In this document: piece by piece, positions 17,069 to 55,430 of the stretch
How positions within the stretch are numbered: the first letter of the stretch is position 1
Layout of the letters: each line of letters starts with the position of its first letter
Assembly: GCA_008632985.1 (NCBI GenBank)
Contig: QPGO01000036.1
Location: forward strand, 124,001-188,000
Length of the DNA stretch: 64,000 nucleotides
Direction: 5' to 3'
Origin: Psammoneis japonica
Lineage: Eukaryota
Notes under the pieces: generated by a model
The model's database searches: none
The model's input: the letters and a program-made list of their open reading frames with translations, nothing else
What the model was told of the DNA's origin: nothing
Made by a program: the position numbers and the translations under genes

Positions 17069-17279
17069 GAAACTGTTTTAAGTGCTCTACCTTCGATTCG
17101 AGTTGTGCCACTCAAATCGCCAAATCCTGTTTGCGTTGTTTTCGTGTCTCCTTTTCTTGTTTTTGTTCCAAAGCCTAGTTCGCTGCCTTTGCTCTCAAAG
17201 TTCTTTTCTCTTGTTTTGCAAGCCTGTCAATTGTGTCGTCATTTCTCATTCAGCTCTTTACAATCGACTGCAACTGCAG

Positions 17280-17453
17280 TGCAAGCTCAAGCTGAGGTTG
17301 ATGTCAAAACAAAAAAGTGAGTGGACCGAAGAGAGGGAGAGCCCAAGCGTCAGCGAGCGCTGGTGAGTGCTGGCGAGCCCTCTCAAATGGCTGTGTTCAT
17401 CTGACATCCAAAATTAACACCACACATCAGAAGCGTGCGAGTGAGTTGCTGCA
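17280..17453 (-). repeat. Gypsy 5' LTR
   Basis: Direct repeat of 11997-12172 with TG...CA ends. The plus-strand left edge could extend to 17275. Confidence 0.92.
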
Positions 17454-17601
17454 GGTGCAACACAGTGGCTGAAACCCAAACAATTGACATCATTTTGTCG
17501 GTCATTTTCAAAAATGTTGTGTGCCTCCAAACATGCTCATTGGAACTGTCAACCACATCACACCATCAGTGAATGAACACTGGTCTGAAGCTTCTTGCAT
17601 G

Positions 17602-17843
17602 AAAAAAGTCATTTGTGGAACCGGGCGCACTGTGTTCATCAACAAGGGCAATGAAAGACAGTGGTGACAACATCAGAGCGCGCATTCTGGTGATCAAGGG
17701 TGTCTTTCTCATGGCAAATTTTAAAAAAGTTGTTTGTGGAACCGGGCGCACTGTGCTCATCAACAAGGGCAATGAAAGACAGTGGTGGCAACATCAGAGC
17801 ACACATTCTGGTGATCAAGGGCATCTTTCTCATGGCAATTTTT
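17602..17843. repeat. Tandem duplication, 2 x 121 bp
   Basis: AAAAAAGT..TTTGTGGAACCGGGCGCACTGTG...TCTTTCTCATGGCAA starts at 17602 and 17723. Confidence 0.9.
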
Positions 17844-20090
17844 TTTGTGCTGTGGCAGGACACCAGATGTGCACATGGTGATTTTTTGTTGTCCACGGCA
17901 GTTGTCATTTTTTTTGCTGTGGCAACCCTGCCATCGCCGCGGGAATTTCTTCATCCATGAGATCCTCCCTTGTTCTGGCGCCTCTTTTCACAAACTCCAG
18001 ATTGCTGCAAAAAGTCAAAAATTGCAGTCATTTGCAAATTGGCATGTTTTGCTTTGATGCCCAGCATCGTTGAAAATGATGAAAGCTGCGCATTGCAAAT
18101 TAATTTCATCGGTGGTTGCTGTTTTGCTGCTTGCATTGCTTTGGCCAGGCATGGCCAAGAATGGCTCTCCTGCACCACATCTTTTTCTCCGCCTTCATCA
18201 TCCCCGCCGCTGGCAATGCTGTCTTCATCATCGTCCTCCATTTCTCCTCCTTTGCTCCTGTTCGCCACATCGTCCTCATCATCACTCGACAGCTCAATCA
18301 TTGCTTGCATCCTCTTCACCATCTTTGGCAGCTTTTTCTCCTTGGCTCCACTCTTGTTGCTCTTGTTGCAGTTTTTTTCCTTCTTGTCTTCCATGTGACC
18401 TGTGTCGAGCTGCATGCCTTTTTCACTCACCCTGTCATCTTGCACTTCTCCACGCAGCTCGTTGCATTCTGGGACTGCTGGGATGTTCTTGGAGTTGTCG
18501 GCAGGGCAGCATCCATGTTTGGGGCCTTTGGGCAGTTGCTGCACTGTGCAAAAAAAGAAGAACAACCAGCGCAATTCCCCACAGGACAAAAATCCGACGT
18601 GGGATTCTGTGCCAGGGCTGTGTGAAAATGACTCAATGTCTCTCAAACATTTCCAACTTGACTGACAGGCAGCCTGAGCCACGAAAAAAAGAAGAAAAAG
18701 CCAACTCCAAACTGCCAGTTGTTGTTGCATTGTGTGTGCATTTTGCAGCAAGGCAACGTGTGAAATCTAGAAGTGCCACATGTCAATTGCTGCCTGTGCA
18801 GCAAGAAGTGTGCTTTGTCACCCTCGCCGCACTGTTGAGAAAAAAATGTTCGAACCAAATTGTCTGGAGGCACTTGATTGTGTCAAGACAGGTGAAAAAT
18901 CATGGACAAACCACATTGCATGTGATGTTGTTTCAACCAGAGATTCTTTTGACATTTCAGCTGGACTTTTGAGGAATGTGATTGGGTTGGGTGTCTGTCA
19001 TCATTGTCATCATCGTCCCCCACTCATTTTCAGCATCTCTTTTGAACTTTTTGTGGATTTTGATCCACCAAATGGCTGTCTGTTCAATGATGTGAGTCAG
19101 CCGGGGTGGGGCCAGTTGGCTGCGCACATTTGGGTTTGATGTGACTGTGCAACTGGCCACACCCTGCAGGAAAAGCTGTTGGTGGTGCGCGAGCAGAAGC
19201 AACATCAAAGCAAAAAACACAGTGTGGGTCAAAATGTTGTAAAGTGATGCGAGAATGAGCAATGAGGAGAAACCCAACTTTGCCCAGGAAAGAAGCACAT
19301 CAATGTGTTGCCCAATCACTTTGATCTTGTCTGAAAATGCTTGCTCACAGATCATGAACGGCATTTGCGTCATTGCTTGCCATGGCATTGTTGTGTGGTG
19401 TCATGCGCTGTTGTTGTGCGCGAAGGACGGGGTTCTGTTTTACCCACAGTGAATCTGTTTTGGTCACAGCAGATGTTTCACCATGCCCAACTTGAAGACA
19501 TTTTGAGAAGCGCTTCGCAACAACTCTGTTCACACCGTTGAACATTAAAATTTTTTTGTGCAGATTCCGCAGCTGTTTTGGGGTGTTCTGTTGGACTTTT
19601 GAGTTGCCACATGCGCATTGCAAGATTCAGAAACTTCAATGACATGTGATGTCCCAAGAGACACACACAAATTTATCTTCCCTGCAGACCTTGTAGAATG
19701 TGTGCCAACGAAAATCCACTGCCTGTCAACTCACTCAGCAGCATTCCACGTGCATTCTACTTGCACCTCACACACGCACACACACCTGCACAGTCTGATG
19801 ATGCCAGAGACAGAGTCAACCGCATCAGGCGCAGCAGGCAGCAGCGGGGAGTTGCCTCAAAGTTGTTGAAACTGTGACTCAAATTGAAATGATGCACTCT
19901 TCAATTGCTTCACAAAACTTTGCAATGTCTGCATTGCGACACTGTTGGTGAATTGGACTGCACAAAATTTGGCCTGTTGCCCATCAAACATGTGAGCAAT
20001 GAACAATTGCACTCTGCAAACAAGTGGGCTCATTTGCACAGCTTTGTGGCTTTCGACAACAAGAAAGTCATCGCAGTGTGTTTGTCACCA

Positions 20091-20225
20091 AACAACTTTC
20101 AACAACTTTTTGTTGAAAGTGGACAACTTTCAACACTTTAGAAAGACGCAACTTTCAACAACTTTTTGTTGAAAGATGCAACTTTCAACAACTTTTTGTT
20201 GAAAGACGCAACTTCCAACAACTTC
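20091..20225. repeat. ~30 bp tandem array of hairpin-forming units
   Basis: Unit CAACTTTCAACAACTTTTTGTTGAAAGA(T/C)G contains inverted arms CTTTCAACA/TGTTGAAAG. Confidence 0.85.
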
Positions 20226-20971
20226 AACAGAAAACTCACCGGCACAAAAATCTGATTGGAAAAGCGACATCATCTGAGACAAGTGCACATGCATGACCGA
20301 CATTCATCATTGATGCAGCATTGGTGCCATTCGATTCTCAGTGGCGGTGCTGTCACCAACATTGTCACTTCTAAGTCCTTTGTTGATTTTAATGAGATGT
20401 GATGTGTTGAGCCATGTCCACACCTTGGTGTGACTGATGAAGTTGCTCATGACTTGGCGCTTTCATCTGAGGATGAAACCACCTGAGATGCAGCATGCTG
20501 GGACCCAGACTCAGAATGGCAGATGGGATTGCTGGGCTCAGAGGATGGAGCAGCCGATGGTTTGGTGCTGGGATGATTCTCACTTGGAGCTGCAGACAGC
20601 GCCTGACGATGCACTGGGTGAGATTGGAGGCAGATCACTGCCAGGTGGGAGCTTTGCTTGGTGTGAAGCACATTAGATGGTGGCTCACTTGGAGCCATTG
20701 AAGGTGCTCCACTGCTGGCAGATTTCAAGAAATTGACAATTCTGAAACTGCTGCAGCCAAAAATTCTGAAACTGCGCCACAAATTGTCAAACTGCTTCCA
20801 CCAAAAACCACCAAACCAGTGCTGAACTGCTGAGCCAACTTCACGCTGCTCTTTTGGGCTTTGGCAAGGTGTGCATTGCTTGTGCTGTTCTCATCACGAT
20901 CTTTGACTTTTGTGTCACCCCACTGCAGTGCAACCCTAAATGAGAACAATGTTTTTGCACGTGTCGATGTG

Positions 20972-21108
20972 GTTTTTGTTACAAAAGTGTAACTTTGAAC
21001 AGATTTTTGTTAAAAGATGTAACTTTGAACAGATTTTTGTTGAAAGATCTAACTTTCAACATCTTTTTTGTTGAAAGATCTAACTTTCAACAACTTTTTG
21101 TTGAAAGT
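20972..21108. repeat. Second ~30 bp hairpin tandem array of the same family
   Basis: Units TAACTTT(G/C)AACA..TTTTTGTT(A/G)AAAGAT repeated about 4 times. Confidence 0.85.
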
Positions 21109-21416
21109 CAGTTGTCCGTTGAGTTGTGACCATAAACTCAACATGCAACATGTGTTGCTGAATGTTTTCATGCAAGGAAAGAGCAATTTCAATGTCTTCA
21201 ATGGACATGCGTTGCAGCGTGCAAAAATGTCCATTTCACCAGAGTGAGTTGTCAGCGGGAATCAGATGCACCATGCCTGCATGCATGAGCGTGACGGGAC
21301 AACTTCAACTTTTAACAGATTTGAGGCGACTCCCAGCAGCAGCAACAGACAACAACAACGATGGCAGTGGAAACATCAGCAGGGACGTTCACGACAAGGA
21401 TGCCGGCAGAGATGCC

Positions 21417-23434
21417 ATGAACCAATTGATGGCAAATGTCTCATTGGCACCAACGACACCACCAGGACAACAAAAGAAGTCGACGACCGGCACTGGGACC
21501 AAGAAGAAGCCACGGAGGAGTCGATCCAGTTCCCGCCCGAGTGCTCTGGCAGCGACAAAAAAGAAAGGTCAGAGATCCACATCAATGCCGCCATCGTCAA
21601 AGCTGAAGCAATTGAAAAACAACTCAGAAACAATGGTGAGCAGCCACTGTTCACGGACGGAACATCATTGACATTGCATTGAACGATTCACTTCCCTCAC
21701 TTGTCTTTCCTCTTTTTTTTCTTTGATGTCTGCGTCCGAACCACAGGCTTCAGACCTTGCTGTTGAGGAGTTGCTTGGCCTGTCATCATCTGAGGCCGAC
21801 GCCCTTGGACGGCAAGAGATCATTGGCCAGCTGGTGATGCACCGTGACAGCATCCTCAACACCTCCATGCTCTGGTCTGGTGACAAGGTGTGCAAGCAGA
21901 TCACTCTAAAGATTCGCTGTCTGAAAATGTGCGTTCTGCAGAAGGCTGGGACTGTTCAGCATGGCGCCGGAGAGGCCCCCGCAAACATTTGCTGTGGGAA
22001 GTGGTCCAAGGACAAGGACAAGATCCGGAATCTTGTGTTCCAGCCTGAACCATTTTTGGGGTGCAATTTTGCAATGCACGGGGGTGAGATTGTGCAGGTG
22101 CTGGCAGAAATTCCGACGGAAGAAGACGCCAGAGCCACCCTTGGTGATGAACGTTTCAAGTTTCACAAAGGCGGAACTGTCAAGTGTCGGCACTGCTGTC
22201 CGCGGGACCTCAAGAACAATGCCGAGCTGAAGAACAAGATCACTCACATCATCGGAAAAGGATTTTGTCACCGGGACGATGAAGACCCAGAGTTCTCATT
22301 CAACGATGCGTGCATCACCCACAACTTGTTGTGCAAGCACAAGAGTGCGTCCCATGCGATCACAGTTGAGCTTGTCACTGATGAAATGGGGCCACACGGG
22401 ATCATGTGATGAAGATGTGTCACTTGGTTGGGGTTGTTCTTTTGATGGACGACATTCAGGCACACAAGAAGGAGATCCAACAAGGTCATCCCGACAAGAT
22501 TCAACAGGTCTGCCAGAAGAATTTCAGGGTCTTCAACTTAGTCCAGATCACCATTCTGAAGGAATGCTCGCACCAACGGTTGGGTTCTGTTGTGATGGAA
22601 GCTGTTGAACATGCCTTGAAGGCATTGGCAAATCCAGCCGACCACAAAGTGCCACCTGCCAGTTTCTTATTCTGGGTTGGTTGTGCCAAGAGTTTCTACA
22701 AACGTCTTGGTTGTTCTGCCAATCCAGGCTCTGATGGGGTCCCCGATGCTTGGCGAAATGTGTTTGAGTGTCCTGTGAAGCTTTCCAAATGGAAGGATGG
22801 CCAAGTTCAGGACATGACGGATCAAGAAAACCAAGAGATTTTCTTCTGCAAGTCATTCACCTGCACCAATCGGAACAAGTTTGGTGACCTTCAAAATTGG
22901 TGTCAAGATGATCCTGCCCGTCAACATCTCACTGTCACACACAGGGTTGGAGTGTTGAAGGAATGCTGCAACTTTGGTCTCAGCCGTGGCAAGCGTGCTG
23001 AGACAAAATCCATCAAAAATCTGGGGCACATTGAGGAATTCCCAACTGTTCATGATCATCGCACGGTTTGCGGTGTCACTGAAATCGATGTTGACATCAA
23101 ACAGCACACAGCTGCAAATGTCAACAGTCATGTCGAATGCAAGTGTGAGTTTGTCAAGAATTTTGTCTTCATCTGTGGCCAACGGACTGACGATGGTGGG
23201 AGGGACTTTGGGTTCAACCTCAACATCAAGGTGGCTGCTGAAGTCAAGGCGGAACACATCATCCACCATGGCCACACGCAGAATGGATTGACAGTGTCTG
23301 TCTGCGGCGACATCGTCAAGGGTGGCAACACCGCCATGCTGATCCAACTTAAATTGCCTTGGTTCAACTCGAAGGAAAGAATGAAAGTTGATCGGGATTG
23401 GCCTGCTGTTGGTCGTAAGATGGTGGAGAAATGA
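21417..23434 (+). pseudogene. TpA-mutated intron-containing gene with a GNAT acetyltransferase-like domain
   Basis: In-frame GT-AG intron 21636-21746 with a pyrimidine tract joins ORFs 21162-21671 and 21723-22409. Frameshift near 22406. Then LVGVVLL...LVQITILKECSHQRLGSVVM...AKSFYKRLGC (GNAT motif A and FYxxLG). Start uncertain. Confidence 0.6.
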
Positions 23435-26307
23435 GTCGTTGATTGCATCTTCAATTTGGTTGATCAGGCTGTGTTGGTTGCTTGGCAAAGAACAGAATTG
23501 TCGATTGCTTCTTCAATTGAGTGCAACAAATCACAATGAATCGGCCATGGTGACAGTGATGGAATGATGGGTGTCAGTCTGATGGGTCGATTGCAGCCTG
23601 CAATTTGAACTGGGAACTGGCACAAATGCAGGATGCAAAAGAAATGCATGTGTGGAATTCATTTGCATGGAGCCAGAGGGCAGCTGACACACATCGGATG
23701 GACGGTCGGTTGGTTGATCGCTGTGTGTTTGTGGGTGGGTGTTTGAAATGGTTGTTGAAAGTGACATGAACAGCAAGGAATGTTGCTTGCATCCATGGGG
23801 CACAGATTTTCATCTAAAGCTGATTGTTGATTGGAAACTTGCCCCATGACGAATGCACATTAGACTGATGTGTGTTCTCTGTTGTGTTGCTGCTCTCCGA
23901 AGCAGCATTGAACAACAACCACGCATTGACAAGACAACTCCCAAGTCTCAATTTGCATTCGTCAATTGTTGTTAGATTCGAATTTTGTTGGAGAAAGTTG
24001 AGATGCAAATGCATTGCACTGAGATGGTCCGCCAATGCCCAAATCAAAAAGAGGTGGAAGATTCCACTGCTGGCACCACCGCACCATCACTGCTCCAGCC
24101 AACAGTGCAACACACATTTTCAAAAACAAAATGTCTGACAAACAATCCCATTCTTCTTTTGCGTCATACATTGTTGATGCTGTCCCAACCATGTCGCAGC
24201 ATGTGGCATTGGTGACTTTCCACCCGACCGCAAACACACACACATGCACGTGCAAAACACAGAGAGATCAGAAAGAAAAGACAACAAGACATTGTGCACT
24301 TCATTTTTGACAATGTAGATGCTGACAAAAAACTTCTGATGGCGGCAACGTTGCCAGATGGTGGTGAAGGACACTCGTGTGCAGGATTTGTTGTCATTGA
24401 GATGATGACTTGAGACAAGACATCGGTGGACTGATCTTGCTGATCAGTGAAAAAGATGTCAATGGAATCACACTCGATTGGATCAAGGCAAACCATGTTG
24501 ATTGAAGGTTGTGGCAATGGGACGAGCAGCTGCTTGCATCACATTGTCACCCGACCTTCAAATTGACCAACAGCGAACACTGGACAAACATGGATGTGGC
24601 GCAATCCAACCAAGCCATCCTTGAACAACAGTGCATTGACATGATGACACCCCAAGTCTTGATGCGTGTGTCAATCTTCATTGACGTCAAATGAAGCAGA
24701 ACCAGAGATGGCCATGCACCAGCAAGATGGTCACAGGCAGCTGTGAACAAGGTGAAAGATTTCAACACAACCAGCTGCAGCCAGCATGCAGCCAAAAAAA
24801 AACCTTGTCCGGCAACAACAACAGCACCGTCACAAACATTTCCCTCTCGTCAAATGACATCCCGTCGGTGTGTTGATTCCGCACTGACAACTGGGATTGC
24901 TGTCACGTTAAAGGTTGTCTGCACATCAGACAACCCCCTGACACCAGAGTCCGGCAATTTTTTTATGTTTGTGGCTGGCCAAAGGAAAAGGGAAAAAAGG
25001 AGGGGATTCAACCTTTCGATGCATGCAAAAATTGACCATGCAGCAGGGCCAGAGATTCATTGGCTTCTTCTTTGTGGTCTGGGGTGGTTGCTGCAGGGGC
25101 AAAAGCTGGGTGCACATTGCAACTTCAGGGTGACTGTCAGCTCAAAGGCTGCATCAGGGGAGGGCCAGGGAGAAGAAAAACATGCAAGCTTGGCTGCTTG
25201 CTTTTCAAACCCTGGTGTGTTGGTCATGAGCAAGCTTTCGAGAGAAGAGTGAGAGAGGTTCTGGCTGCATTGCCATGCAGAGAGTCTTGTTGCTGGCACA
25301 TCTCAGGTTGTGTGTTCAGCATGCTCAATGGCTCTTGGGCCCAACAACCTCACTCAGAGCTTTTTTGTGCCAGCAACAAGCTCAAAGTTGTCTTGCTGTG
25401 CTGACAAATGACAAATGAGCTTGAGGAGGCTTGTCTGCAATTTTGCAGCTGTGACATGGGGGCACCAATGACATGAGCTCCTGCCAGCTCCAGCCTTGGC
25501 TCAGGGCTTTTACAACACTGGTGTCTCTTGCTCAACTGCAGAAAAGAGCTGTGGCATGTGAGGTCAGGCAGCCCAGGAGCCAGGCTGTCTGCACTCCTTT
25601 TGCAGATGGAACAAAGGGCCATCATGACTGCACAATGAGGGCAATTTGTGTGGTTGTGCTGGTGTTCTGAAGGTCTGGGTGTGCCCCTGGGAAGCTGCAC
25701 ATGAAGAACTCAGCATTGCCACCAGCACCATGAGTGCATTGCCGCCCTGCTCTGGGAGCCTGCAAACTCAAGTTTGGTGTCTCAGCTGGCATCGTTTTTG
25801 TGCACGATTTGGGTCGCATGTGGCTGGAACAGGTCATTCGTGTGCCAACAAGCCTCAAGCTGTGGGTCATGAAAAAGCCACCAACCTCCCAACCAGCTGC
25901 AGAGCCAGCCAAACCATGCCACTTGAGGGTCCAAGGTTCAAAACAAGAGGGTTGCATCAACTCTCTTCTTGTTTTGTGTGCTCAAGAGCCTTTTGTTCTC
26001 TCTGCAAGTCTTGTTTGGTGTGTGCTCACTTCTGTTGAGTTTGGATTGAAGAAAGGAGGCTGCAAGTTCCAGATGGGTTGATTTGCCTTTGCTGCAAAAG
26101 GTGTGCATTGTCCATTTTGATTGGACGCCCATGCAGAGATCTGAAAACCAGCATTGTTGCAAGCATTGAATGCAGAGAGAGAAAACCAATTGACATTTTG
26201 AAATGAACATGCAAATGCTTGGCAGCTGGCGCAGAAATGAAAAGATGATTTCGAATTTGACATCCTGTTTTGTCCATTCGATTTTGCTCATGCCCAAAAC
26301 TCTGCAT

Positions 26308-26428
26308 CGTTGACCATTTGGCTGTCTTTGTACCAAAGCAGAAATTTTAATTGGGGGATGTTGTCAACCATTTGGCTGTCTTTGTGCCGAAGCAGAAATT
26401 TTAATCAGGGAATGTCGTCAGCCATTTT
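26308..26428. repeat. 54 bp tandem repeat (about 2.2 copies)
   Basis: (TG/CA)ACCATTTGGCTGTCTTTGT..C.AAGCAGAAATTTTAAT at 26311 and 26365, partial copy at 26419. Confidence 0.85.
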
Positions 26429-27683
26429 TGGCTTGCTTTGGCTTGAAGTCATTTTTGTTGATGTGGGTTGTGGGCTTGTTGTTAACTGGCCATGATCCTG
26501 CTGAAATCTTTGCCAGAGTCCCTCCCTTTTTCTGCACACACTTGCTTGAACCGGCAACCCGGAAATGGGTTGAGGTCAGTGCGGTGGTTGCTTTACGAGG
26601 TCGCCCCACCTGCACTCGACACACCCGACAAACACTCAGACAAACAAACCAGCAAACCCAAAAAACAAACCTGCACAAGGCAGCTGCAAAGCAACTCACA
26701 CTGGGGCCCCTGTTGAGCACAGCACTCAACTTGGACAACTGATGGGGCACTGCTCCTCAGCCAGCCACGATGTTTTGGGCTGAGTTGCCACCCACATTTT
26801 TCCTTCCTGCGTGACTTGGTTGCCGGTCAGAGCCCACTGTCTCTCTCTCCCTACAGTTTTGCACTTCTCCACCTGCCAAAAGTCTGTGAGAGGGGCCCTG
26901 GCAGTGCCAGCTGGCAATCATTGAGCTGTGTTGCACTGCATCTCATTGACAACAGTCGCGCTGCATTTTTTTGCATGTGGTGTTGCATCGTCAGCTGCTT
27001 GCTGGGTTTTGCAGTGTTGGCTGAAACAATGTGACTTTTTTAGCATGCGCAGCTGGCAGAGCTGGCACACACAATGTCATTCTTTCAATGGGTGTCAACC
27101 AAGTGACTTGAGCCCAGTTTTCTCTTTTTTCAAAGCACAACTTTTGCCGCCAGCCAGGGAGGCATGGGGGGGAAATGAAGCAGCAGTGTGGTCACCAAAA
27201 AGTGCCGCCGTGCATGTGCAGGATTTCTAAAATGTCTTTTGGATTTTTGAAAGTGCACAAAGGGCATTTAGAAATGCCACCACGAAAACTTGTTCAACTG
27301 CCCTGTGTTGCTGGTGCCCCCTTGAGCACACAAACCCAGCTGCAAACAGCAGAGCAGCACACACACCCCGGTGCAAGCAACCATTGCAAGCACAAGCAGC
27401 ACATGAGCAAATTGTTCACACAAACATGTTTTCGTTGAGGCTCAAGCAAAAACCACAGGGATGCACAGTCAAGCCCAAACAAGACGCAGGACTCTGTCGA
27501 AGCCCTCCGAGTGTCTCCCGTCCTTGCGTCGTCCGATGCCTCTTCCTCGATCTGCTCCGATCTCCGCCGATCGATAATCTTGAAGATTCATTCTTGATGC
27601 GTTGGCGTTGACGTTGACGCGGGTATGGACATTGATAGATGCATGCATCGGCATCGCAAAAGAAATAATAAACGAATCACTGT

Positions 27684-40138: not shown

Positions 40139-40699
40139 AATGCTGTGAATGGCTACAAGAGTGTGCTTGATTGCAACAAGTTGGTGCTAAATAGCAAAAA
40201 TGCGCTTCTCGTCACCACAACGCTCAAAGGCACCATCATGGGGTTGGGGGGAAACTGCCATGCCGGTGCCGGTGCTGTACACCCTCTACGTGCGCGTGAG
40301 GAGGGGGGGGCAGACGCGGAGCAACGGTCGTGCCTGAGTAGAGTCATGCAGGCAGGAAAAGGGATGGATTTCGAATTGGGGTTGGAGAGTTGGGATTGTA
40401 GTTTGGCAGAGTAGCGGGTCAGTTAGTCAGCGAGCGATTTGGTGATCGCAAGGCTCAGGCTTTGAAGGCCCCATTGTGATGGAGCAGAAGTGGTGTGGTG
40501 GGTCAGACCGAAGCATCAGGTGGATGTGTTTTGCCAAGCGGCCGTGGCAGTGGGTGGAATGGCAGATGGTGACAGTTGGGCACAGGTGCACGTGGCATGG
40601 GCAGCTGGGTGTTGAAAGGAGGATTGGCACATCAAAGCTCGGGCCATCGAAGACAACACCGATCCGCAATCTTTCCAGCCCACCAGCATCTCCAAAAGT

Positions 40700-41700
40700 G
40701 GAGCCCCCAAGCACAATGTGCCCAGAGTGCCCATGCTGTGACACATGGTCTCCGCCAGAAAATTCTGCCACCCAAGACCTTCCCAAGGCAGTTCAAGCTC
40801 ACCTGCGTGCAGAGCATAAAAAACCAGACCTCCAATTTCTCCCACAAGACTTTCTTTCCCAAGCCAACCTCTGCACTCCTGCCAGCACATGTGCAACTCC
40901 ACCCAACACCTGGGCCTCTGCGCGCCCCGGCAACCTGCACAACCACCTTTTGCCCACCACAACCCAGCCCACACTGACACCAACTCAGCCCTTGCAGCTG
41001 CACACCTGTCTCATGGCATGCCTGGCCCACAACAATGCAGTTGCTCGCTGCTCTCGAAGTTGCACCTCCGCCGTTTCGCGCATCCACACATCACAAGCTC
41101 TCTCCCTCCACATGACATGAAGCATTTGTCACCCTGCACCACATCCTCACCTGGATCATTGAATCCACTGAGCCCCTGCACCTTGACCCTGACAACCTGG
41201 CTCCACCCCATGAGTGCACATCTCCCTCTTCTGGAAACTGCTGCTTCTCTTTGAAGCCATCATCCTTGCCCCACCTTGCCGCTCCCCTGCCGCCAACACC
41301 AAGAGACACCCATTGGCTTCCTCCGTTGCCTCAACTCACCTTAAACTCTTCCAACAAGGCTGCATCCATGAGCTGCACAACATCACATGCACCACTCCCT
41401 CCCACTCTGCTCCCACTGCCCATGCACTCGACTTCTCTGCCTCCACCTGCCACCTGCTGCCACACGGCTCAAGCATCCTCTGATGCTGACAACTTCAGCA
41501 CTGCTTGCTGTTGCATCACCTTCAATCTTCCAGTCACCACCATTGATGACACCCGCCTTCACCTTGTCCATGCATCATGCCCACCATGCGCCCCACACCC
41601 GCCGCGGGCATCTGCTTCTAACGCACGACACCCTGTGCCAAAACCATGACCACCGTGCATCTCTGATGATCATTTCCTCACTGCCCCCAGCAAATGCAAG
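40700..41700 (+). mobile_element. Decayed non-LTR retrotransposon-like ORF fragment (Zn finger and pre-RT region)
   Basis: CPxC...HLRAEH, FWKLLLLFEAIILAP...LKLFQQGCIHELH and ADNFSTA...PVTTID across shifted frames resemble CRE/Ambal-type ORFs (recognition from memory). TpA-depleted. Confidence 0.45.
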
Positions 41701-42531
41701 CCTGGCACTCATCTTTGGCGTGGTCCTCAAGCAACTCAATGCTGGACTTTGCCAATGCCTCCCTTCCTCCAATGTCATGCTCACACTGCCTCCCTCATTG
41801 ACGACACTGGCATCTCGCTCCTGCACACTGAATTGCCATGGTTCCTTCAATGCCCCGGGCCCAAAGTGACGGTCATGCCAAATGAGCTTGCAAAAAATGC
41901 AACAGCAAAAACAAGTGACATCACCAAAGTTTGAGGCATTGAATGATGATGACATGCACAGCATCACACCTCGTCACACTTGAGACAATGCATGCATCAC
42001 AGAAGATTCCACCAAGCAGCAGTGACGTGGAATTCCCATTGAATTTTGAAATTGTTCACGTGCAAATCCAACCACATGCACTCGGTTCTTTGTCTGTTGA
42101 GTCGCTCTCCATGATCCATTGGTGCTTTCTCTCACTGCTTGTGGCTTCTGACAAGCAACAAGAGAGAGAGTCATCATGTCATCGTCGCTGCACAGTGCTG
42201 CAACAGATTGAGTTGTTCTGACAAGGCCGCCGTCGTGTTGGCACATGCTTGTGAGGAAATGCAGGCTTTCTTGCCTGGTGCTCACAATGTGATGAAGATT
42301 CTTGAATCAAAGAAGAACAACAAGGGCCAGCAAACATGTGAGAAGAAAATGGTGGAAGAACAGAAGAGGAATCTCTGGCAACTGCTTTGCAGCACACAAT
42401 TTCCAGTTCTGGCATTCAGGTTCATGGGCAGTGCGTCAGGTGGCACCTTCAATGTTGTCAGTGGTTCTGGTGTCACTGTCAAAGGTGGTGAGAATTTCAG
42501 GTTGGGAGAACCCTCATCGTAGACACAGCAA

Positions 42532-43310
42532 ATGGGCCTTCATCTTCTTCTTCACAAAGGAAACTCGTGGCTGATGACGAAGTTTCGGAGCTGCAACAAA
42601 ACTCCCACGATGTGCTCCAAGCATCACAAATTGGCCACACCAATGCTCAGCGAATGCATTGCCAAGGTGGACCCATCACAAAACAACAGCCGCACCAAGC
42701 ATGGAGTCACATGTTCACCGGACGTCAAGGTCGTGAAAAAAGTGGCAAAGAACAGTCGAGTTCCAACTTGGAGAGAAATAAGCCTCACCGCGACGGACAA
42801 TTTGGATCGAGCAAAGTTCATTGGCAACCTTGCTCTTGACACGAACCGTGACTTGCGTGACCACAATCACGAGCTTGTCATGGAGGAATGCAAGAGTGAT
42901 CAAGTGGATCGTTGTCGCCATGAGCAGCACCAGGCCCATTTGGAAGCAGTCCGTTTGCAGGGGGACAATGAACGTTATACTGCCGTGAGCTAAAAGAGGT
43001 GCGTGACAACTGACAACATTGAGCATCTGCACCACAGGTGGAAGGAGGCATGCAATGTCCTTGAGACACGTGAGGGCACCGAGACAGCCCATTTGAGGTC
43101 GGAAAATGAACGTCTTCGCCGCGAGCGAAACGAGGCACGAGAAGATAATAATCGTCTTCGTCGCGAGTGAAACGAGTCACCTGATGATAATGATCGTCTT
43201 TGCCGCGAGCGGAATGAGGCTCTTGCTGACAACGACCGTCATTACCACCAGCTCCGTCCTCTCTAGAGAGACATGCATCCGACTGGATGTCCTTGGCAAT
43301 GACAAATTAA
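42532..43310 (+). pseudogene. Decayed ORF with 42 bp coiled-coil repeats (ENERLRRERNEARE)
   Basis: Three to four 42 bp units at about 43100-43250, with internal stops and frameshifts. Confidence 0.5.
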
Positions 43311-45262: not shown

Positions 45263-45668
45263 GGTGTCCGGTCGGTGTCTCCTACTGAAGCAAAAGATGA
45301 TCAACGATTTCCCAAACTTTGCTGCGATTGAAAGTATATTCCTTCTGTCTTGGAACTATTCTGACTATGCTGCTTTTCTTCTATTGCATGTTGCCTTTGT
45401 TTCTTGCTTCATGTGAGTCGCCGGGTTGCGCTTGCGAGCTGCCACCGTGGTCTTCTGTGGTCATCGTCGGGCGGATGTGAAATGCGCGGGAACGGGAACA
45501 CGTCATTCCGATGTCTTCTTGTCTGTCGTTACCGGTGCGTCTGCAAAGAAGTGATTGGGCCCGCCTCTCCCGGTGCCGGCAGGTGCTGTGCTGGTAGGGT
45601 GTGCATTGCTCTTATCTTCTGACGGGAGTGTTGCTCGTCTCAGCCGGTCACAGATGTGCACGTCACAA

Positions 45669-48600
45669 GGGCGCCCCATTGTCACTGCAGCAGTTGTTTG
45701 CAGCAAACCCCAAACGCAAGTGTTGTCAAGCTGCCGTGCATGCACCTTGCTCTGTGAGCTTGAGAGTGGCTTGCTTGTGCAGAGCAACTCACCAAGGGTG
45801 ATTGTTCTGAAAGAGTGCACTGCATGTTCAACTCAGTGAGCTCTGTCAGCAGTTGAGAAGGCGCGCACTGTTTGCACAATTGGCCACACTTTTTTCACTT
45901 CCTCCTGCCTTGTGTTTTCCCAGATTCTCACAGAGATCAAGGGAGCATCAGCACACTTGGTGTCTTTGAAATTTTGAGCGCAAATGCCAGTGCTTGCTTT
46001 GCATCTTTGGAGGCGAAAAACAACAAACAACTCCCAAACCATTCTCTGATTAAATGCAGTGTTTTCTTTCTGACTTTGCAGCTGCTCCTCTGCTGACCTT
46101 GACAACTTGGAGTTGTGTTGACTCTGCTGCTTCTCCTCCATTGCACATTGTCCTGCACCACCTCTTGGCCAACACAAGCCAGCTCCAAGCTGTCATTGTT
46201 GTTGTCATGCAGACATGTGTGAAGTGTGCAAGAACAACACATCATTTCATTGTCTTGTCCATCATTTTGTCAGCAGGATGTGCTTGCTCTTCTGACAAAA
46301 GTGTTGCATCACTTTGTTCAGCTGGCTAAAAACCTGTCAAGAGAGTGCCCCCTGTTGGCGCTTGTCAAGATGGTGCAGTTGAGTGGGTTCAGACAATTTT
46401 GCAGTGCTTTTCTGGAAATCATGTTGTGCCCCTGTTTTGCCAGAAAAATGCAAGAGAAAGAGCACTGCAGCCATGGCCCGTGTTGGCTGGGAGGTGAGTG
46501 TTGTTGCTGTGGCTGGTGCCTGTGCAGGCGCCAGCTGTCAGAAATGCTGCTGGGCCAGTGGCATCAACAGCTGCTCTGTCCTGCTTTGTGCCTCCTCCAC
46601 TTGCTGTGTTTTTGTTCCCTTCCTCCTGCTTTTCTTCTCTGTGCACAACTGGTGCTCTCTGGGAGAGAGCTCTCCAAGAGAAAATCAGGCTCTTTGATGT
46701 GAGGAGCACAGCAACAATGTTGGGAAAAGAAAAAAATTGTCTGGCAGTGCTTGTTGAGCCCAGAGGCAAGGCAGCAGTGCCCCCAGAGCTGCTGAAAAGA
46801 GGAGAAGAAACCCCCAGTGCTGCAAAGAAAACATGTCTTGATTGTGAGCACACAAGAGCAAGGGGGGTGCCAGCTCCAGATCTCAGCTTCTGCCCAGGTG
46901 CTGGGAAGGGGGGGGCAATGCTGTGCTGCCTGTTCCCTGGGCAGCACTTTCAGCTTTGCTTTGAGTTTCTTGGTGCCTCCAGCCACACAGGAGGCTGTGC
47001 TTTGAAAGCTGCCCAGTTTTTTGTTTTGTGTCATTGGGAAAGATCAGCTTTCAATGAGTGTGCAAAAAATTGGCACATCCACAAAACAGCAGAGCTTGGT
47101 GTGTCAATGTGAGAACATTTCCATTGGCAGCATGCACTTTTGTTGAAACATTTTTGAAAACTGAAACTCACACTTCATTCTCAGTGGTTGATGGTTGGCT
47201 TGCTCATCTCACACTGCTCTCCTCATTGAGTGTCTGCAAGTGCACAGGGTTCAAAAGTCTGCTTGATGCTGGTGGCCAACTGGAGACATCTGTTGACTCA
47301 AGCATCAGCTGGAAGCAGTGGTGGTGATGGCCAATGTTGACAAGATCTCCATTGTCAAGTGAGAAAAAATTTCTGCCTTGTTGTGGAGTGAAGTGGCTGC
47401 AAAACAAGTGGGATGTTGCTCATGCTGCTGTTTTGCTTTGCAACATGAAGCCCACTGCACTTGGCTGCCTGCAGGCTTCTTGTTCATCACATGCTCCCCC
47501 ACAAAAAAATTCAGCTTGCAATGAAGCAAAAGGTGGTGGCTCCAAAATTGAAATGCTGCCAACATTGTTGCCCCAGTTTGCAATGTGCTGGGGCCTGTCA
47601 TGCTTGTCTGCGAGTGCTGCTTGGTTGTTCAGCACCCTCAAAACTGAGCAGAGCAACTCTTTTGTCCCTGTGTGACAAAGCTGATGTGGGAAAACTTCAA
47701 AGGCTGTTTTTTGTGTTGCTCTTTGCAGCTGGCATTGCTGAGCTCACAAAAAATGGCATCATGAAAATGCAGTTGAGCAATCTGAAGGAGAAAAAATGAG
47801 GCCACATGCAAAAAATGCCATGAGTTGCAATGCTCTCTGCAAGCCAGAACAAAGTGCAAAATCCAAAATTTTAACCAAAGCATGGTGGCATTGAGGAGCA
47901 TGGCCTTCTTGGTGACCTGCCACCATGCTCTCACCTTCTTGGTCCTGGTGGTTGTTGGTTTGAGGATTTGCAAGTTCATGGTGTGCATGAAAAGGGTGCT
48001 GGTGCATTTGTGTGACAATCCTGTGATGCTTTTGCTTGTGTTGATGGCCTGGCATGTGTCTTGTGAGCCCTTGAAGCTGCTGCACTTAAAAATTCCTTTG
48101 ACAACTCAATCATGAGAGCATGTTTTGACTCTGTTCCATCTTCTGCAAGTGACCCAGGTGCCTCATGCCAATGTGGCACTTTTTGCATGGAGCACAAAAA
48201 AGATCTTGAGCCCAACAGACTCCCCTGTGCCAATCAGTGGACATGCTCCAAAACATCTTTGCATCTTGCAGGAGCAAAGTTCACCAAGTGGTGACAACAC
48301 CAACAGAGTTTAATGTCAAAGGCTGGGATGACATCAGCAAATGTGCTCCACACTTGCTTGCTGGTCAACTGCTGCCTGCAGGTGCTTGAGCATGAGCAAG
48401 AGGCCTTGCATGAGTTGAAAACAGTCATTTCCATTGAGTGATTTTCCACAGAATGGGCTGTGTTTTGCTTTGATCAGTGGCTTGTTCTTCAGCAGCTTCT
48501 CACATTTGCTTGAGTTGTCCTCTTTTGGCTTTTGGCACAGTCATTTTTAAGTCCTTCAGCAACTTTTCAAGTGATGGCAGTGCTCTTTTTCTCCTTTTTT

Positions 48601-50680
48601 GGCATCAATTCCTGGCTGGCATGTGCTGCCATGAGAATGGTGAAGAAACTGCTCTTGGCTGCCACCCAGATTGCCAATTTGGCAGGCCTCAAAAAAGCTC
48701 ATCCCATGCTTTCTTGAAAATCTCTTTTGCACTTTTGACAGATTTGTTGTTCAGCATGTTTCTCAGCCTTCTTGAAGATGACAAATGCAGTGATCAAGTC
48801 ATGAGTGTCTGAAAATTCATGGCACACTGGTCATCACTCTGACAGTTGACTCAAAAACCAGCTCATCCCACAACTTGTTTGTGACACAAAAAAACATGAA
48901 GCAGGACAGTTTGACAAATGTGGGAGAAGTTGGCTGGAATGAGTGGCTCATGCATTGCTGAGCTGTTTTTGTTTGTGCATCATTTTCATTTGCCAATTGG
49001 CTTCATTTGTTTTGCTTCCTGAAGCTGTTTCTGAAATTGTCCATGAGTCCATGAGTGTGTGCCTCTCTTCACATTTCATGTGTTTGTCTCACTTTTTCAA
49101 AGTTTTAAAGAGGACATTGCACATGCAGCATGGGAGGGGGGTTCTTGAAGAGGCATCCTGAGATTTTGTGCCACCAAGAACACAGTGTAAGTTGCAGATC
49201 ACTGTTGTCACTTTCCCAGATTGCATTTTTTGGTGCAGAATGCTTGAGGAGTCCAGCTGCACATTTCTTTTGTCCCTTTCTGTGTCAAGGAGCTGAGCTC
49301 CCCATGCCATGTGGATTGAAAGTTCATGACAAGTTCTTGCCAACTCAGTGCAGGCTGCCCAGTTGAGCCTTTCCCATTGAAGACCATGGCACAAAGCACC
49401 CTCTTCTCAAAAACTTGTGGGACCATCTTTGGAGGTGCCTTGCATGTTGAATCAAAGCAAAAATCCACATCATCTTTCATGGTGTCAAATGCGCCCTTTT
49501 TGAAACTGCAGCATGTGTCTGGTGCATCCAAGGCTGCACAAACATCAAAGAAGTCTGTGCTGTTAGGCTCAATGCACACATCACGGTTGCTTCAAACTTG
49601 AGCTGCATGAATTTGTCTCCTTTGTCCCTGCCAAAACACATGATGACAGTTTTGTCATCACAAGCAAAGGCATTTTTGATGATGTTCACACAAGCAGCTT
49701 TGAGCCACACAACAGCGCAACACTGCAGCACACTGTTTTGCCAACACTGTCAACAGCATGTTGTTGCCACTCTGGCACCTCTTGTCTTTTTGACATGAGC
49801 TTCACTTTGTCAACAGCACAGTCTGGTGGAGTCCCTTCCATCATCCTTGAAAGAGTCTGCCTTCAACCACACAAACCAGCACCCCTGGCAGCAGGAAAAG
49901 CAAACAGCTGGTTGTGGCAATTTCTTGTTCAGTGCCCCCCTCCCCTCCCAGCCTGTGTTGCAGCTGTCAAGCATTGACTTCACCCAACATCTGCATTTTC
50001 CTGTGGAAATGAGTGTGCAGCCCCCCTCTTGGCACGCGACAATTTTTTCCATTGCAGCACCCTTTTGCCACAAATCACATTGTGAGACAGAGTTTTGGGC
50101 AAGACACTTGCAGCAGATGCAATGTCCCTCTGCTTTGTTTGTGTGCTGGCACCACCTCTTGAACTCTTGGCTTGCATCCACTCTGACCCCCAATCATCTT
50201 GGTCCTTTGGCTTGACAAAGCCATGCAAGTTTGGACCCTGGACCCCAGTGGGCTCTGTTGCCAGTTCACGCTCAGTGTGCTTGACCATTTTCAACATCAA
50301 CTCATCATCAATTTTCACAAAACTGTTCAAAGATGACAGCAAAATTTTGCTGCCACAGCACCATTGGATGAGTCTGCTGGCAACTCAGATTCTGTTTCTG
50401 GGGGGGGGGGGAACATGACACCAAGGCACCACTTGCCTTTGCCAAATTGGAGCCAGAGTCAGAGTCAGACTCTCCTCTTGTGCAGGGGGTGGCAGGAAGT
50501 GGCATCATTGGCATTGTTCTTGCCACAGCTGCCAAAGCAATGGAAGAAGGTTGAGCACCCTTTTGTGTGCAACCATGCCACAGATCTTCTTTTGCCAAGT
50601 TTTCAAGCTGAAGTTGTGACAGCAAGGTGTGACAGAGGTGCCGCCATGCCCAGCCAGAGGTCGGGTGACTCATTTTCACT
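45669..50680. repeat. Copy 1 of a ~5 kb decayed repeat unit (unclassified element)
   Basis: Collinear anchors shared with 50683-55430: GGG(CG/TG)CCCCATTG.CACTGCAGCAG, CACTTCCTCCTGCCTTGTGTT, GAAGCAGTGGTGGTGA, TGACAAATGCAGTGATCAA, ATGACACCAAGGCACCACTTGCC. Confidence 0.8.
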
Positions 50681-50682
50681 GA

Positions 50683-53600
50683 GGGTGCCCCATTGCCACT
50701 GCAGCAGCTGGCACTTGTTGAGCTGATTGGTTGACAGAGAGCCAACGCCTCATGCATGGCTGTCAAAGCACATTTTCTTTGGCTTTGTCATGTTCCCTGG
50801 GATTTGTGCACTCTACAGAAAATTGGTCAAAAATTGAAAAAGCCAACACATTGTCCAAAATTTGATGACAACTCTGATGGAAAAGTTGGCCTTTGAAGTT
50901 TCACTCACATTTCAATGCCCCCCAAGCCCAAATGCAAATGTTTGGGCTGTCACGCAAGCAAGAAGCTTGCTGCCAGATTGTTGTGAGAGAGCAGGGTGCA
51001 CTTTCAGTGCAGCACACTTTGCATGTTTCTTGTTGGGAAGACATGCGCTGTCTGCACAGTTTGTTGCACTTTCTGTCACTTCCTCCTGCCTTGTGTTCAC
51101 CTCAATTTGCACAGAGATTGAGTGAACATCAACACATTTGTCGGTGTCTTTGGAGCTTTGAGAGAACACCGCTGCATGCTCTGTGTCTTTGGAGGCAAAA
51201 GATGATCAACAACTCCAAACTTTTCTCTGATTGAAAGTGTTCTCCTTTTGTCTCAGCTGCTCCTCTGCTGACTTTGACAACTTGGAGCTGTTCTGACTTT
51301 GCTGTTTCTCCTCCATTGCATGTTGTCCTGCACCACCACCTCTTGGTCAATGTGAGATGTGAGAGTCAGTTGCAAGCTGCCATGGTTGTCATCATGTGGG
51401 CATGTGTGAAGTGTGCAGGAACACAAATCAAGTGGAGCACAAAGATGAAATGCCCAAGTTGCCATCTTGAGGAGAGGGTCAAAGTGGATGAGGTGACTTC
51501 AGCAGCTTGCATGGAAAACATGCTGAGCTCTGCATGTGGCACAAAATCTGCCCCAAATTTGCGCCCACTCTGCCTTAAAAGAGCGGAGCTGCAAAAATGT
51601 TAAAAAGTTGTTCAATGGACAGCCCAATGTGTGAAAGTCACACAAAAATGCAAGTGCGTGACAAGCAGTGCTGGTGCTGGATGAAGAAAATTTCAGTGTT
51701 GCAGTCCAGTGCCATGAGGTCTCACCCAGAGCTGGAGTGCATTGTTGGCTTGCTGGGAATTCTGATGGTTGAACACCACTTTTGTTGAGTTTGCAAATGC
51801 ATGTGGCTCAAAAGCAGTCATGTGCTTAACAGCAATGGTCCAATGGAGATGTCTGTCAACTCAAGTGTCAGTCAGAAGCAGTGGTGGTGACAGAAAATGA
51901 CATTGGCAAGACCCACATTGTCAAGCAAGAAAATTTCTACCTTGCTGTGGAATGAAGCAGCTGCAAAACAACTGGCACATTGCTCATGCTGCTGCTTTGC
52001 TTTGCAGTGCAAAGCCCACTGCACTTGGCTGCCTGCAGGCTTCTTGTTTGTCACATGTTCCAAACAACAAATTTCAGTGCTGCAATGAAGAAGCAAAAAG
52101 TGGTGGCTCCAAAACTGAAATGCTGCCAACATTGTTGCCCTGGTTTGCAATGTGCTGGGGTCTGTCACACTTGTTTGTGTGCCAGTTGATTGTTCTGCAC
52201 CTTCAAATCTGGGTGGAGCCAGCAACTCTTTTATCCCCATGTGACAAACTTGATGTGGGAAAACTTGACGTGCAGCAGACACCTGCATGTTGCAAAGACA
52301 CTCCAGCCTGCAACCAAGTCTGTTTTTGTGTTGTCTTTTGCAGCTGGCATTGCTGAGCTCAAAGTGAACAGCATCATGAAAAATCCTGCTGAGCAATCTG
52401 AAGGAGAGAAAATGGTCTAAGGTCACATGCAAAAAAGGCCATGAGTTGCAAAGCTCTCCACAAGCCAGAGCAAACTGCAAAATCCAAAATTTCAACCAAA
52501 GCATGGCAATGTGAGGAGCATGGTCTCCTTGGCAACACACCACTGTGCTCTCACCTGGTCCTGACAGCTGTTGGTTTGAGGATGAACAAGAAGTTTGTGG
52601 TGGGGGCAAAAAGGGTGCTGGTGACTTTGTGCAACCCTGTGATGCTTTTGCTTTCATTGATGACCAGAAATGTGTCTTGTGAGCCCTTGAAACTGTGCTT
52701 CTTTCTCTTGCTCTAAGTTTCTTCACAACATGACTGGCACATCACACTGAGGGCAATGCCACAAGTTTTTGTAACAACTCACTCATAACAGCGCAGTGTG
52801 TTGACTCCATTTTTTTGTCTGCAAGCAACCCAAATGTCCCATGCCAACCATTTTCTTCTGTGTGGAGGATGAGAAAATGGATCTTGAACACAACAGACCC
52901 TGTGGTGCATCAGTTGGTGCACATGCTCCAAAAGATCTTGGCATCTTGCAGCAGTGAAATTTGCTCAAATGGCAACATCAGCTGAGCTGAACATGAAAGG
53001 CTGTGATGACATCAGCAAATGCACTGGTGTTTCCCAAATGTGCATTTTGGTCGGACCAAATTGTCATTTTGGTCGAACCAGATTTGTTGACAAATTTGAT
53101 GCTCACGACCAAAATGATTTTGTTTCCCGAAAATGTCATTTTGGTCGGCGGAATTTGGCACGCTTCAGAGGGAATCTTCCATTGGAAAGCGAGCACGTCA
53201 ACACACCGTGCAAATTTCGTGGGAGCCACGTCAGTGTTGTTTGTGTGGAAACATGTGTGAAAATGAATTTGGTCGAGATTTTGCAAATGTCAATTTGGTC
53301 GACCAAATTGATTTGGTCGGTCTGGCAATTTGGTCAACAAAAGTGTTTTGGCTCAACCAAATGCCAATTTGGGCCAACCAAAATGCACATTTGGGAAACA
53401 CTGCTCCAAACTTGCTTGTGTTCTTGTGAAATCATTTCTGTTGACAAATGCAGTGATCAAATGATGAGTGTCTGAAAGTTCATGGCACACTGCTGGTTGT
53501 CACTGTGACAGTCGACTTGCCAACCCCAAAACCCAGCTTGTTCCACAACTTCTTTGCAACACCCAGAACAACATGCGTGGGACAAAGAGGACACAGCAGA

Positions 53601-55430
53601 AGTTGGCTTCTTCATTTGTGCATTGTTCTCATTTGCCAATTGACATCATCTGTTTTGCTTCCTGAAGCCATTTCAGAAAGTGTCCATGGGTGCTTGCCTC
53701 TTTCCACTTTTCATGCCTTTGTCTCTCTTCTTCAAAAGTTCACAAGAGGACATTGCATGCACAGCATGGGAAGGTTGCCAAACAGCCTTGAAGACCCAAC
53801 ATGACATTTTGTTGCTGCCAAGAACAAAGCACAAGTTGCAGATCACTGCTGTCACTTCTCCAAGATTGCATTTTTAGCACAGGATGCTTGTTGAGTCCAA
53901 CCACACATTTTTTTTGTCCCCTCCTGTGTTGAGGAGCTGAGCTCCTCATGCCATGTCACCCTCATGAAAATTGAAAGTTCACAATGAGCTGCCAACTAAC
54001 TGAGTGCAGGCCACCCAAGTGCACCACTTTGGACAACTGGCTCACATCCCTTGGGTGCTCTGCACTGTCATGCTTTTTCAAAATTGAGTTTCGCCCACTG
54101 AAGACCATGGTGCAAAGCACCCTCTTCCCTCCGAGACATGTCTTTTTAAGAGCCTTGCATGTTGCATCGAAGCAGAAATTTGCTTTGTCTTTCATGGCAT
54201 CAAACACACAGTTCTTGAGATTGCAGCAGGTGTTTGTTGCACACAAGGTTGCACAAATGTCAAAGGAGTTTGTGCCATTGGACTCTCAATGCCACTCATT
54301 GCAGTTGCTCCAAACTTGAGCTGCACAAAGAATTTGCCTTTCTTGTTCTTGCCAAAACACATGATGATGGTTTTGTCATCAAGCAAAGACATTTTGGTTG
54401 TGGTCAAAGCAGCTTTTTTGAGCCATGCACAATGGCATGACTCTGTCACATGCTGCTTTGCTGACTTGGTCAACAATGCACAATTGGTGCTCTACCTTTT
54501 GTCCTTGTGCCATGATGATGAGCTTTCTTGCTTTGTCAACAGCAAAGTTTTGTGAAGCCTTTTGCTTCTGTCATCCTTGAAAGATTCAACTTTTGGCCAC
54601 AGAAGACCACCCGTTGTGCCTGCTGGCAGCTGGGAAAGCAAATGGCTGGGGGTGAAGCTGTTTTTTGTCTGATGCCCCCCAACCTGTGTTGCAGCTGCAA
54701 TGCATCCACCATGCCTGACGTTTGCACTTTCCCAAGGAAATGACTGTGTGTCAGCACACTGGCTGTCCCCTCCCACCTGCTTGACAAATGATTTTTCCAT
54801 TTTCCACTGTGGTGCCCTTTTTGTCATCCTTCACATGTGAGACAGAGTTTGCAATGTGGCGCTTCTTGCAGCAGACACACCAGTGTCCCTCTGCCTTGTT
54901 TGTGTGCTGGCACACCACCTCTTGAACTCTTGGTTTCATTCCACTCTGACTCCTGACCAACTTGGCCACTCAGCTTGACAAAGTCATGCAAGTCTGGACC
55001 ACAAGAACGGGCTGTTGCCAATTCATTCACAGCGTGTGGTGTGACCATTTTCAATGTTGGCTCATCAAGCTTTTTTGTTCAAAGTTGTTTGGGAAGCTCC
55101 AAGCAACTCTTCAAAGACAAAACAGCAGACCTTTGCTGCCACAACCCCATCAGCTGGCAAGTCAGAGTCTGCTTCTGGTGCAGCAGCTCCTGAGTGGTTT
55201 TTTGCATCTTGTCAGTGGGAGACAACATGACACCAAGGCACCACTTGCCATTGCTGAGCTGGAGCCAGAGTCAGGGTCAGATTCTCTCAGAGGGGGTGGT
55301 GGCCGATGGCTTCATTGGCCCTGTTCTTGCTGCAGCCACCAAAGAAATGGAAGAAGAATAGAAGAAGCACTTTGTTTGAGTGTAGTCGTTCTCATTTGCT
55401 TAAATTATGACCTCAATGACAGGAACGCCC
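50683..55430. repeat. Copy 2 of the ~5 kb decayed repeat unit
   Basis: Same anchors in the same order and orientation. Carries an extra MITE insertion. The right boundary is approximate. Confidence 0.8.
53026..53402. mobile_element. 377 bp MITE with ~55 bp imperfect TIRs and probable 3-bp TSD
   Basis: GTGTTTCCCAAATGTGCATTTTGG ... CCAAAATGCACATTTGGGAAACAC. The empty site ATCAGCAAATGTGCTCCA is seen in copy 1 at about 48333-48350. Flanks ACT/GCT. Confidence 0.88.

Follow-up and report, generated by a model that had tools for sequence, protein, structure and literature searches.

How can a piece of DNA of moderate GC content lose one dinucleotide completely over 1.5 kb? In the window, by which we mean the whole 64,000-nucleotide stretch of DNA analysed, TA dinucleotides occur at positions 46327 and 47872, and the 1543 bases between them (46329..47871, 49% GC) contain none. 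A sequence-only reading had described this stretch as free of TpA and nearly free of CpG, both having drained into TG and CA. Exact counts agree with that description. In 10,000 base shuffles of the stretch, TA averaged 101.8 ± 7.4 and never fell below 76, while CG averaged 90.3 ± 7.2 with a minimum of 65; the natural sequence has no TA (102 expected) and four CG (90 expected), at 46359, 46479, 46529 and 47611, an observed/expected ratio (o/e) of 0.04 for CG. TG (o/e 1.89) and CA (o/e 1.68) make up 348 of the 352 pyrimidine-purine steps, and less-mutated relatives, described below, set the direction of the change. The five gene-rich blocks of the window carry 38–45 TA per kb and have no TA gap longer than 218 bases; TpA is mildly under-represented in the genes of the window (o/e 0.57–0.58). 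With TAA and TAG lost, TGA is the only stop left in the six frames of the stretch, and nearly the only one inside gypsy matches. As a description, it is nearly certain that the stretch, part of a repeat block long dead, shows the end state of TpA hypermutation together with CpG decay.

The stretch and its repeat block

Short-read contigs of run X1, possibly from the same sample as the window's source, are identical to 45456-47477 and, over 47455-52041, show 2 differences besides 3 gaps; their depth is that of single-copy sequence. Their agreement with the stretch rules out a base-calling artefact, and no second allele of 46329..47871 was seen in these contigs. The 1.5-kb limits are arbitrary, since this is the longest TA gap of a larger block and a gap of at least 1545 arose in 41% of 20,000 trials of random placement at the block's TA density (P=0.41). 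A longer gap in CpG, 47611-49492, adjoins it. The real unit is the block, 9.7 kb long (45614..55358), with 23 TA (o/e 0.034) and 59 CG (o/e 0.11). By self-alignment it consists of two repeat units on the minus strand, copy 1 at 45852..50549 and copy 2 at 51032..55356. Each carries a frameshifted remnant of a DUF1280/RAG1-fold transposase-like open reading frame, also on the minus strand (48069..50294, tblastn E 1e-49; 52622..55117, E 5e-48), found with an intact relative, L186:909-4460. The TpA-free stretch belongs to the 3' part of repeat unit 1; it sits 3' of the transposase-like frame, recurs with it in copy 2, and its coding identity was not found. Copy 2 also contains a small multicopy insertion (53022..53408) with 43-nt inverted arms, raised depth and a 75% relative in L219. 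The two copies differ at 20.4% of 2380 columns, or 15.2% outside pyrimidine-purine steps, and only 33 of their 126 small indels are multiples of 3, consistent with neutral decay. Relatives of the stretch, at 65–84% identity, occur in the tandem copy and on six other contigs. A long-alignment copy of the block above ~76% identity was not found in the 91-Mb assembly, where the best candidates were scored and a closer copy could be missed.

The intact relative (contig C80) lies between host genes, has normal TA and CG, and encodes an open frame of 1184 residues carrying DUF1280, with 11 relatives in the protein database. The same DUF1280 occurs together with a RAG1 domain in a brittle-star protein. 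A predicted model of the frame, with a mean pLDDT of 63, matches the RAG1 core (Foldseek E 2e-8; the 43 top matches are RAG1 or ProtoRAG as listed), and we take its DDE-type motifs to be RAG1-like. The fold search alone found RAG1, which sequence searches of the PDB missed. The likeness of the block to RAG1/Transib-like DDE transposases consists of the RAG1-core fold of this relative together with DUF1280. In contrast, identity to RAG1 is 10–13%, neither the decayed block nor the surroundings of L186:909-4460 yielded terminal inverted repeats or a target-site duplication, and the TpA-free stretch lies outside the matched frame. L186:909-4460 is itself a candidate domesticated transposase. Other identities were considered. 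Motifs seen by eye had suggested a Helitron, but the block matched none of 12 Helitron frames or two profiles built from them, and Helitron Rep and PIF1 helicase domains were not found in it. Pfam gave no match for six read-through frames or for 17 open reading frames, phmmer against 1.84 billion representative proteins none for the frame covering 46899-48099, and Rfam none for the stretch. Weak protein matches at L118-L126 were dropped as relatives, having only ~80-220 bases in common with the block, as was contig C160 as a keeper of ancestral TA, with only 3 TA aligned in the homologous part. Repeats on C160 do keep more TA than usual, as in L060, a CpG-poor stretch that reaches 38 TA in 500 bases, and in L075, a gypsy copy converted only in part.

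Compared with the intact relative, copy 1 of the block keeps 0 of 42 TA, 24 of them lying opposite TG/CA, and 0 of 49 CG, 32 of them opposite TG/CA. Copy 2 keeps 1 of 34 TA and 0 of 39 CG, while other dinucleotide steps are kept at ~35–70%. At the edge of the mutated domain, a gene-facing piece (45287..45517), homologous to 46106-46256 and 51192-51422, still has 5 TA and 15 CG at sites where its homologues in the interior read TG/CA for the most part.

Seven TA-poor blocks were measured in the window, with TA o/e of 0.03–0.13 and CG o/e ranging from 0.84 down to the 0.11 of block 45614-55358. A young gypsy LTR retrotransposon on the minus strand (11993..17452; TA o/e 0.11, CG o/e 0.83) is at an early stage of the same process, and a copia-type RT/RNase H fragment on the plus strand (370..1956) has TA o/e 0.13 and CG o/e 0.84. 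Blocks with no identity assigned lie at 17500..27300 (TA o/e 0.07; intermediate CpG loss, CG o/e 0.35-0.47), 40400..42600 (0.05; 0.37) and 7100..7960, a small one (0.06; 0.37). Eukaryotic genes of the window include gyrase A, P450, subtilase and peroxidase. Two arrays of 30-base repeats (20108-20254 and 20979-21126) differ in that the second keeps TA where the first has CA.

Direction, context and timing of the loss

Single changes were followed in 30 gypsy loci, with the TA-richest natural copy of each family as reference. In family 1 (17 copies), A>G after T had occurred at 974 and T>C before A at 1167 of 2524 reference TA, 2141 in sum (85%). In family 2 (11 copies) the values were 986 and 800 of 2382, giving 1786 (75%). 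The same transitions in other contexts reached 1–9% in both families, the higher values falling in steps that CpG decay also touches, and the reverse change, TG/CA to TA, reached 0.4–0.9%. Non-transition outcomes at TA numbered 2–8 of ~110-235 TA per close copy, and TA>CG 0–3 per copy. The direction from TA to TG/CA is fixed because tyrosines conserved in outside relatives read Cys or His in the copies: at 19 such positions in 28 copies, the two reference copies left out, Tyr remains at 45 of 531 sites, with Cys at 305 and His at 175.

Pairs of terminal repeats, among which there may be a few repeats of another kind, were recovered from 34 of 41 loci; they differ by TA/TG at 72 sites, TA/CA at 74, TG/CA at 68, CG-type changes at 83, other transitions at 54 and transversions at 65. 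Conversion thus strikes chromosomal DNA after insertion, on both strands. Most events are independent in each copy, since two copies make the same choice between TG and CA at no more than 55–82% of shared sites. Conversion is graded among copies, from almost none to ~98%, with L075, L086 and C336 partly converted. Helitron frames are converted too, with 0–0.6% tyrosine in 12 of 12. In both gypsy families TAY reacts 2–2.5 times faster than TAR (per-strand rates 1.48 vs 0.59 and 1.66 vs 0.82; p = 1e-18 and 7e-9, calculated on strand sites that are non-independent).

Young retrotransposon copies have lost ~65–90% of their TpA with CpG intact; CpG loss and not TpA loss therefore marks age. The sequence-only reading had taken the stretch as a mark of the oldest repeats, which holds insofar as its block has the lowest CpG of the seven in the window, but not for TpA. 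The two losses are separate processes, because CpG-dead elements elsewhere keep TpA: among 31 outside retroelement loci, from a search of metagenome contigs with the outside protein P0110 that did not recover the protein's own contig, four have CG o/e of at most 0.06 with TA o/e 0.62–0.79, and none falls below 0.48 TA o/e. Both clocks stand side by side on contig C7 (L217-L218), where a CpG-poor transposase relic lies in two pieces with a TA-poor, CpG-intact frame of 1412 residues between them.

Private changes in young copies fall on 81 of 1359 CG and on 60 of 19097 other sites, placing CpG decay at ~19 times background. At that rate, and if the clock is constant, the CpG levels of the block need 11–16% substitution. 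TpA removal may run at roughly 100–400 times the background substitution rate, as a relative estimate. The resemblance to decay of methylated transposons lies in the change of CG to TG/CA in repeats at this ~19-fold rate, and DNMT5a-dependent CG methylation of transposable elements is reported in Phaeodactylum (PMC9998398). The difference is that such decay, known here from sequence alone, explains only the CpG loss. TpA loss tends to follow private CpG decay (rho -0.56, p=0.09, 10 copies; rho -0.58, p=0.036, 13 copies) and shows no significant correlation with other private substitutions (p=0.35, 0.11). The process is no simple clock, since copy L094, whose private changes put it at the age of its relatives, keeps nearly all its TA.

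How late removal continued can be seen between the tandem copies. The sequence-only reading had inferred that new TpA is continually removed. Removal until recently is borne out for the whole block, where TA lies opposite TG/CA at 4 of 272 sites compared with 84 of 637 for control transitions (p=1e-9), but the 1.5 kb alone gives a non-significant result (2/73 vs 13/151, p=0.15), and removal may have been continual or episodic. Transversion neighbours of TA number 0 between the copies, those of AT 18. Simulated drift of 1%, 5% and 11% added 20, 92 and 192 TA to the block, and each copy has drifted roughly 7–8%. In genes YTAR accounts for 125 of 808 TA; among the residual TA of the block it accounts for 16 of 23 (p=2e-8), and RTAY for none. 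Removal lasted until recently, because ~90–190 new TpA are expected since the duplication and 23 exist, mostly in resistant contexts; on the simulated drift, it was active within about the last 1% of substitution. It is likely that a TA-specific A-to-G mutator kept working on the block until recently. We read this as recurring removal, although a single late sweep also fits the tandem-pair result.

Targeting, candidate enzymes and rival explanations

What singles out the converted DNA? In the terminal 500 bases of elements, the fraction of TA kept was 0.54 at TA-rich flanks (20 ends) and 0.16 at TA-poor flanks (16 ends; p=7e-5). Of 46 ends 42 were usable, six intermediate ones being left out of this contrast, and rho is 0.59 on all 42. 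A frame on contig C336 related to that of L186 (L213:5209-8805) has lost TA in its 3' half only, with CpG intact, and looks like an early stage; relatives of both halves have 67–75% identity, and a non-exhaustive search found no closer copy. The flank-dependent ends, the single-copy depth of the block with no long copy above ~76% found, and this half-conversion favour a chromatin domain over copy pairing, suggesting that targeting follows the domain. This reading is subject to the non-exhaustive search, to possible past copies of the block, and to the ability of RIP to use short interspersed matches. Elsewhere, a dCMP deaminase region is duplicated nearly identically over 3.4 kb (L070 and L071, on C41 and C317; 28 differences, normal TA in L070), representing either alleles assembled apart or a spared duplicate.

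We lean towards an explanation with two processes acting in silent chromatin, and rate it somewhat better than even as a whole. The fast one would likely be a recurring A-to-G change at TpA made on DNA by a putative host deaminase of the TadA/ADAT type, the adenine of TpA becoming hypoxanthine, which would be read as G. The slower one is likely CpG decay following cytosine methylation. Both would probably be confined to silent chromatin, sparing genes, and an old element would presumably approach a steady state in which only slow-reacting YTAR sites are left. A chromatin-guided adenine deaminase is our best guess for the enzyme. The genome has TadA-like genes, among them L073 and L069, the latter matching TadA structures with E 1e-30, two ADAT1/ADAR-domain genes (C40 and C79) and several C5-methyltransferase genes. 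The presence of deaminase genes is weak evidence, because tRNA deaminases are expected in any eukaryote. The flank preference recalls TadA-derived adenine base editors, which act as A>G editors on DNA and of which one is reported as most active at TAY (PMC10879117). Those editors are, in contrast, engineered, guide-directed and not limited to TpA, so that the resemblance is one of motif only. Several further loci may be mentioned. At L072:319-1791 (C79), a zinc deaminase domain shares one frame with a 2OG-Fe(II) oxygenase. Three C5 DNA-methyltransferase genes, L166, L167 and L168 (C301:34166-37723; C297:3633-7190 and 35710-39231), are themselves TA-erased (o/e 0.07–0.10, tyrosine 0–0.5%) and are possibly carried by mobile or viral DNA. 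A DNA-methyltransferase exon at L169 (C34:42155-45664) lies beside a chromodomain match just under the cut-off, and a similar chromodomain-DNMT layout is described for some diatom DNMT4 proteins (PMC9998398).

The spectrum would be formally identical if, with the same targeting and timing, T>C arose from modification of the thymine in RTA, or from error-prone repair or polymerase activity in silent chromatin. TpA is palindromic, and for that reason an adenine lesion at TAY and a thymine lesion at RTA are indistinguishable by sequence; no result here ties a deaminase to the conversion. We nevertheless consider a thymine-side origin unlikely, though it is the strongest of the rivals, given that changes at TA are nearly pure transitions and that the flank preference is as reported for the TadA-derived editor (PMC10879117). 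Among thymine lesions, the UV photoproduct of thymine and adenine gives mainly A>T and is set aside as a cause on that ground. A RIP-like process with reverse chemistry, triggered by the pairing of copies and perhaps at the sexual cycle, appears a little less probable again. Nearly every target is a repeat, RIP can work below 80% identity via short interspersed matches (PMC10787394), and diatoms have DNMT4, possibly related to RID (PMC9998398), to which the methyltransferase beside the weak chromodomain match at L169 could be compared. Against pairing, the stretch is TA-free at single-copy depth with no long copy above ~76% found among the candidates scored, ends at TA-poor DNA are strongly converted where gene-facing ends are partly spared, the C336 frame is converted in its 3' half only although both halves have relatives of 67–75%, and the hypermutated viral region of Bigelowiella is reported as single copy (bioRxiv 10.64898/2026.01.13.699255). 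One recent genome-wide sweep, removing TpA from repeats whatever their age, would account for low TpA at all ages and for independent TG/CA choices, and the tandem-pair test shows only that removal was late. It is improbable, however, since conversion runs from nearly absent to nearly complete and tends to be greater in copies with more private CpG decay, since partly converted copies exist (L075, L086 and C336), and since de novo events are reported in 11 of 15 Bigelowiella lines (bioRxiv 10.64898/2026.01.13.699255).

Two readings are refuted. That the changes were made on RNA or cDNA while elements retrotransposed, by ADAR-like editing or by miscopying, gains some plausibility from the two ADAT1/ADAR-domain genes, from L085, L096 and L104, whose interiors are converted while their terminal repeats show no TA- or CG-type difference, and from the preference of ADAR for U before the edited A (bioRxiv 10.64898/2026.01.13.699255). 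As a main cause it is refuted by strand balance, with both strands hit about equally and no one-strand bias, by most terminal-repeat pairs differing at TA, and by the DDE-transposase remnant, converted like the Helitrons although neither has an RNA stage; spared ends also track the flank. The chance that it is right is accordingly very small. Smaller still is the chance that the pattern reflects base composition or codon choice, follows from CpG decay as a by-product, or was made in assembly. TpA is indeed mildly low in genes, but the reads agree, shuffles never come near zero, conserved tyrosines are destroyed and CpG-dead outside elements keep TpA, which together refute this reading.

Relation to known systems and implications

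In Bigelowiella natans, Mettrop et al. (bioRxiv 10.64898/2026.01.13.699255) describe TpA-restricted hypermutation in NCLDV and virophage DNA that is integrated in the genome. Of 231 mutations in two viral inserts, 230 were A>G or T>C, all of them at TpA; the de novo rate was ~1000-fold over background; and an ADAT-type (ADAT2-like) enzyme was proposed, without proof. Our block matches this as a further case of TpA hypermutation, first reported in 2026 in another alga. Shared features are the change of TpA to TpG/CpA on both strands, the confinement to foreign or mobile DNA in the chromosome with host genes spared, and the lack of a demonstrated need for a second copy. The differences are several. 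The host there is a rhizarian, here likely a diatom, and the targets here are gypsy, copia, Helitron and RAG1-fold elements. Loss is saturated here, with TpA o/e of 0.03 compared with 0.45 in the NCLDV region. On our side there are a preference for TAY, edges that depend on the flank and a second clock in CpG; the words 'CpG' and 'diatom' are absent from their main text. De novo rates were measured there, whereas ours is a relative estimate derived from sequence. RIP of Neurospora and Podospora likewise hypermutates repeats, through transitions in a particular context, and ruins the reading frames of transposons. It differs in running from CpA/TpG to TpA, the reverse of the change here, and in needing paired copies and a sexual cycle (PMC10787394), neither of which is shown here. 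No report of TpA hypermutation in a diatom was found in the literature searched, most subscription papers lying outside its scope.

We read the host as a diatom because the only two organism-named relatives among 120 retrotransposon matches come from Pseudictyota and Cyclotella, which are diatoms. One of the 120 outside gypsy proteins, P0110, reads Cys or His at 14 of 19 conserved tyrosines and has 0.8% tyrosine; its identity to anything scored in this genome is at most 58%, and 51–53% over long matches. A second outside protein, P0167, has 0.5% tyrosine. The two hint at the same process in other organisms.

Measurements of a host process that rewrites A:T pairs in mobile DNA come, within the literature searched, from one alga only. 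The block shows where this leads in the long run, to a steady state free of TpA that outlasts the loss of close copies. There are practical consequences. Dead elements acquire long open frames without tyrosine because TAA and TAG stops vanish, and they get called as genes and evade homology searches. The handles gained are the TAY motif, the domain edge, the candidate deaminases and two clocks for dating repeats, TpA fast and CpG slow. A natural DNA adenine deaminase, if true, would be of interest to the base-editing field. It is possible, though we would put it well short of probable, that diatoms possess such an adenine base editor for their own silent chromatin. A deaminase of the TadA/ADAT type would go on converting TpA to TpG/CpA in any silenced DNA, needing no homologous partner, and would hold old repeats TpA-free; this defence would be shared with rhizarians and may be ancient in SAR.
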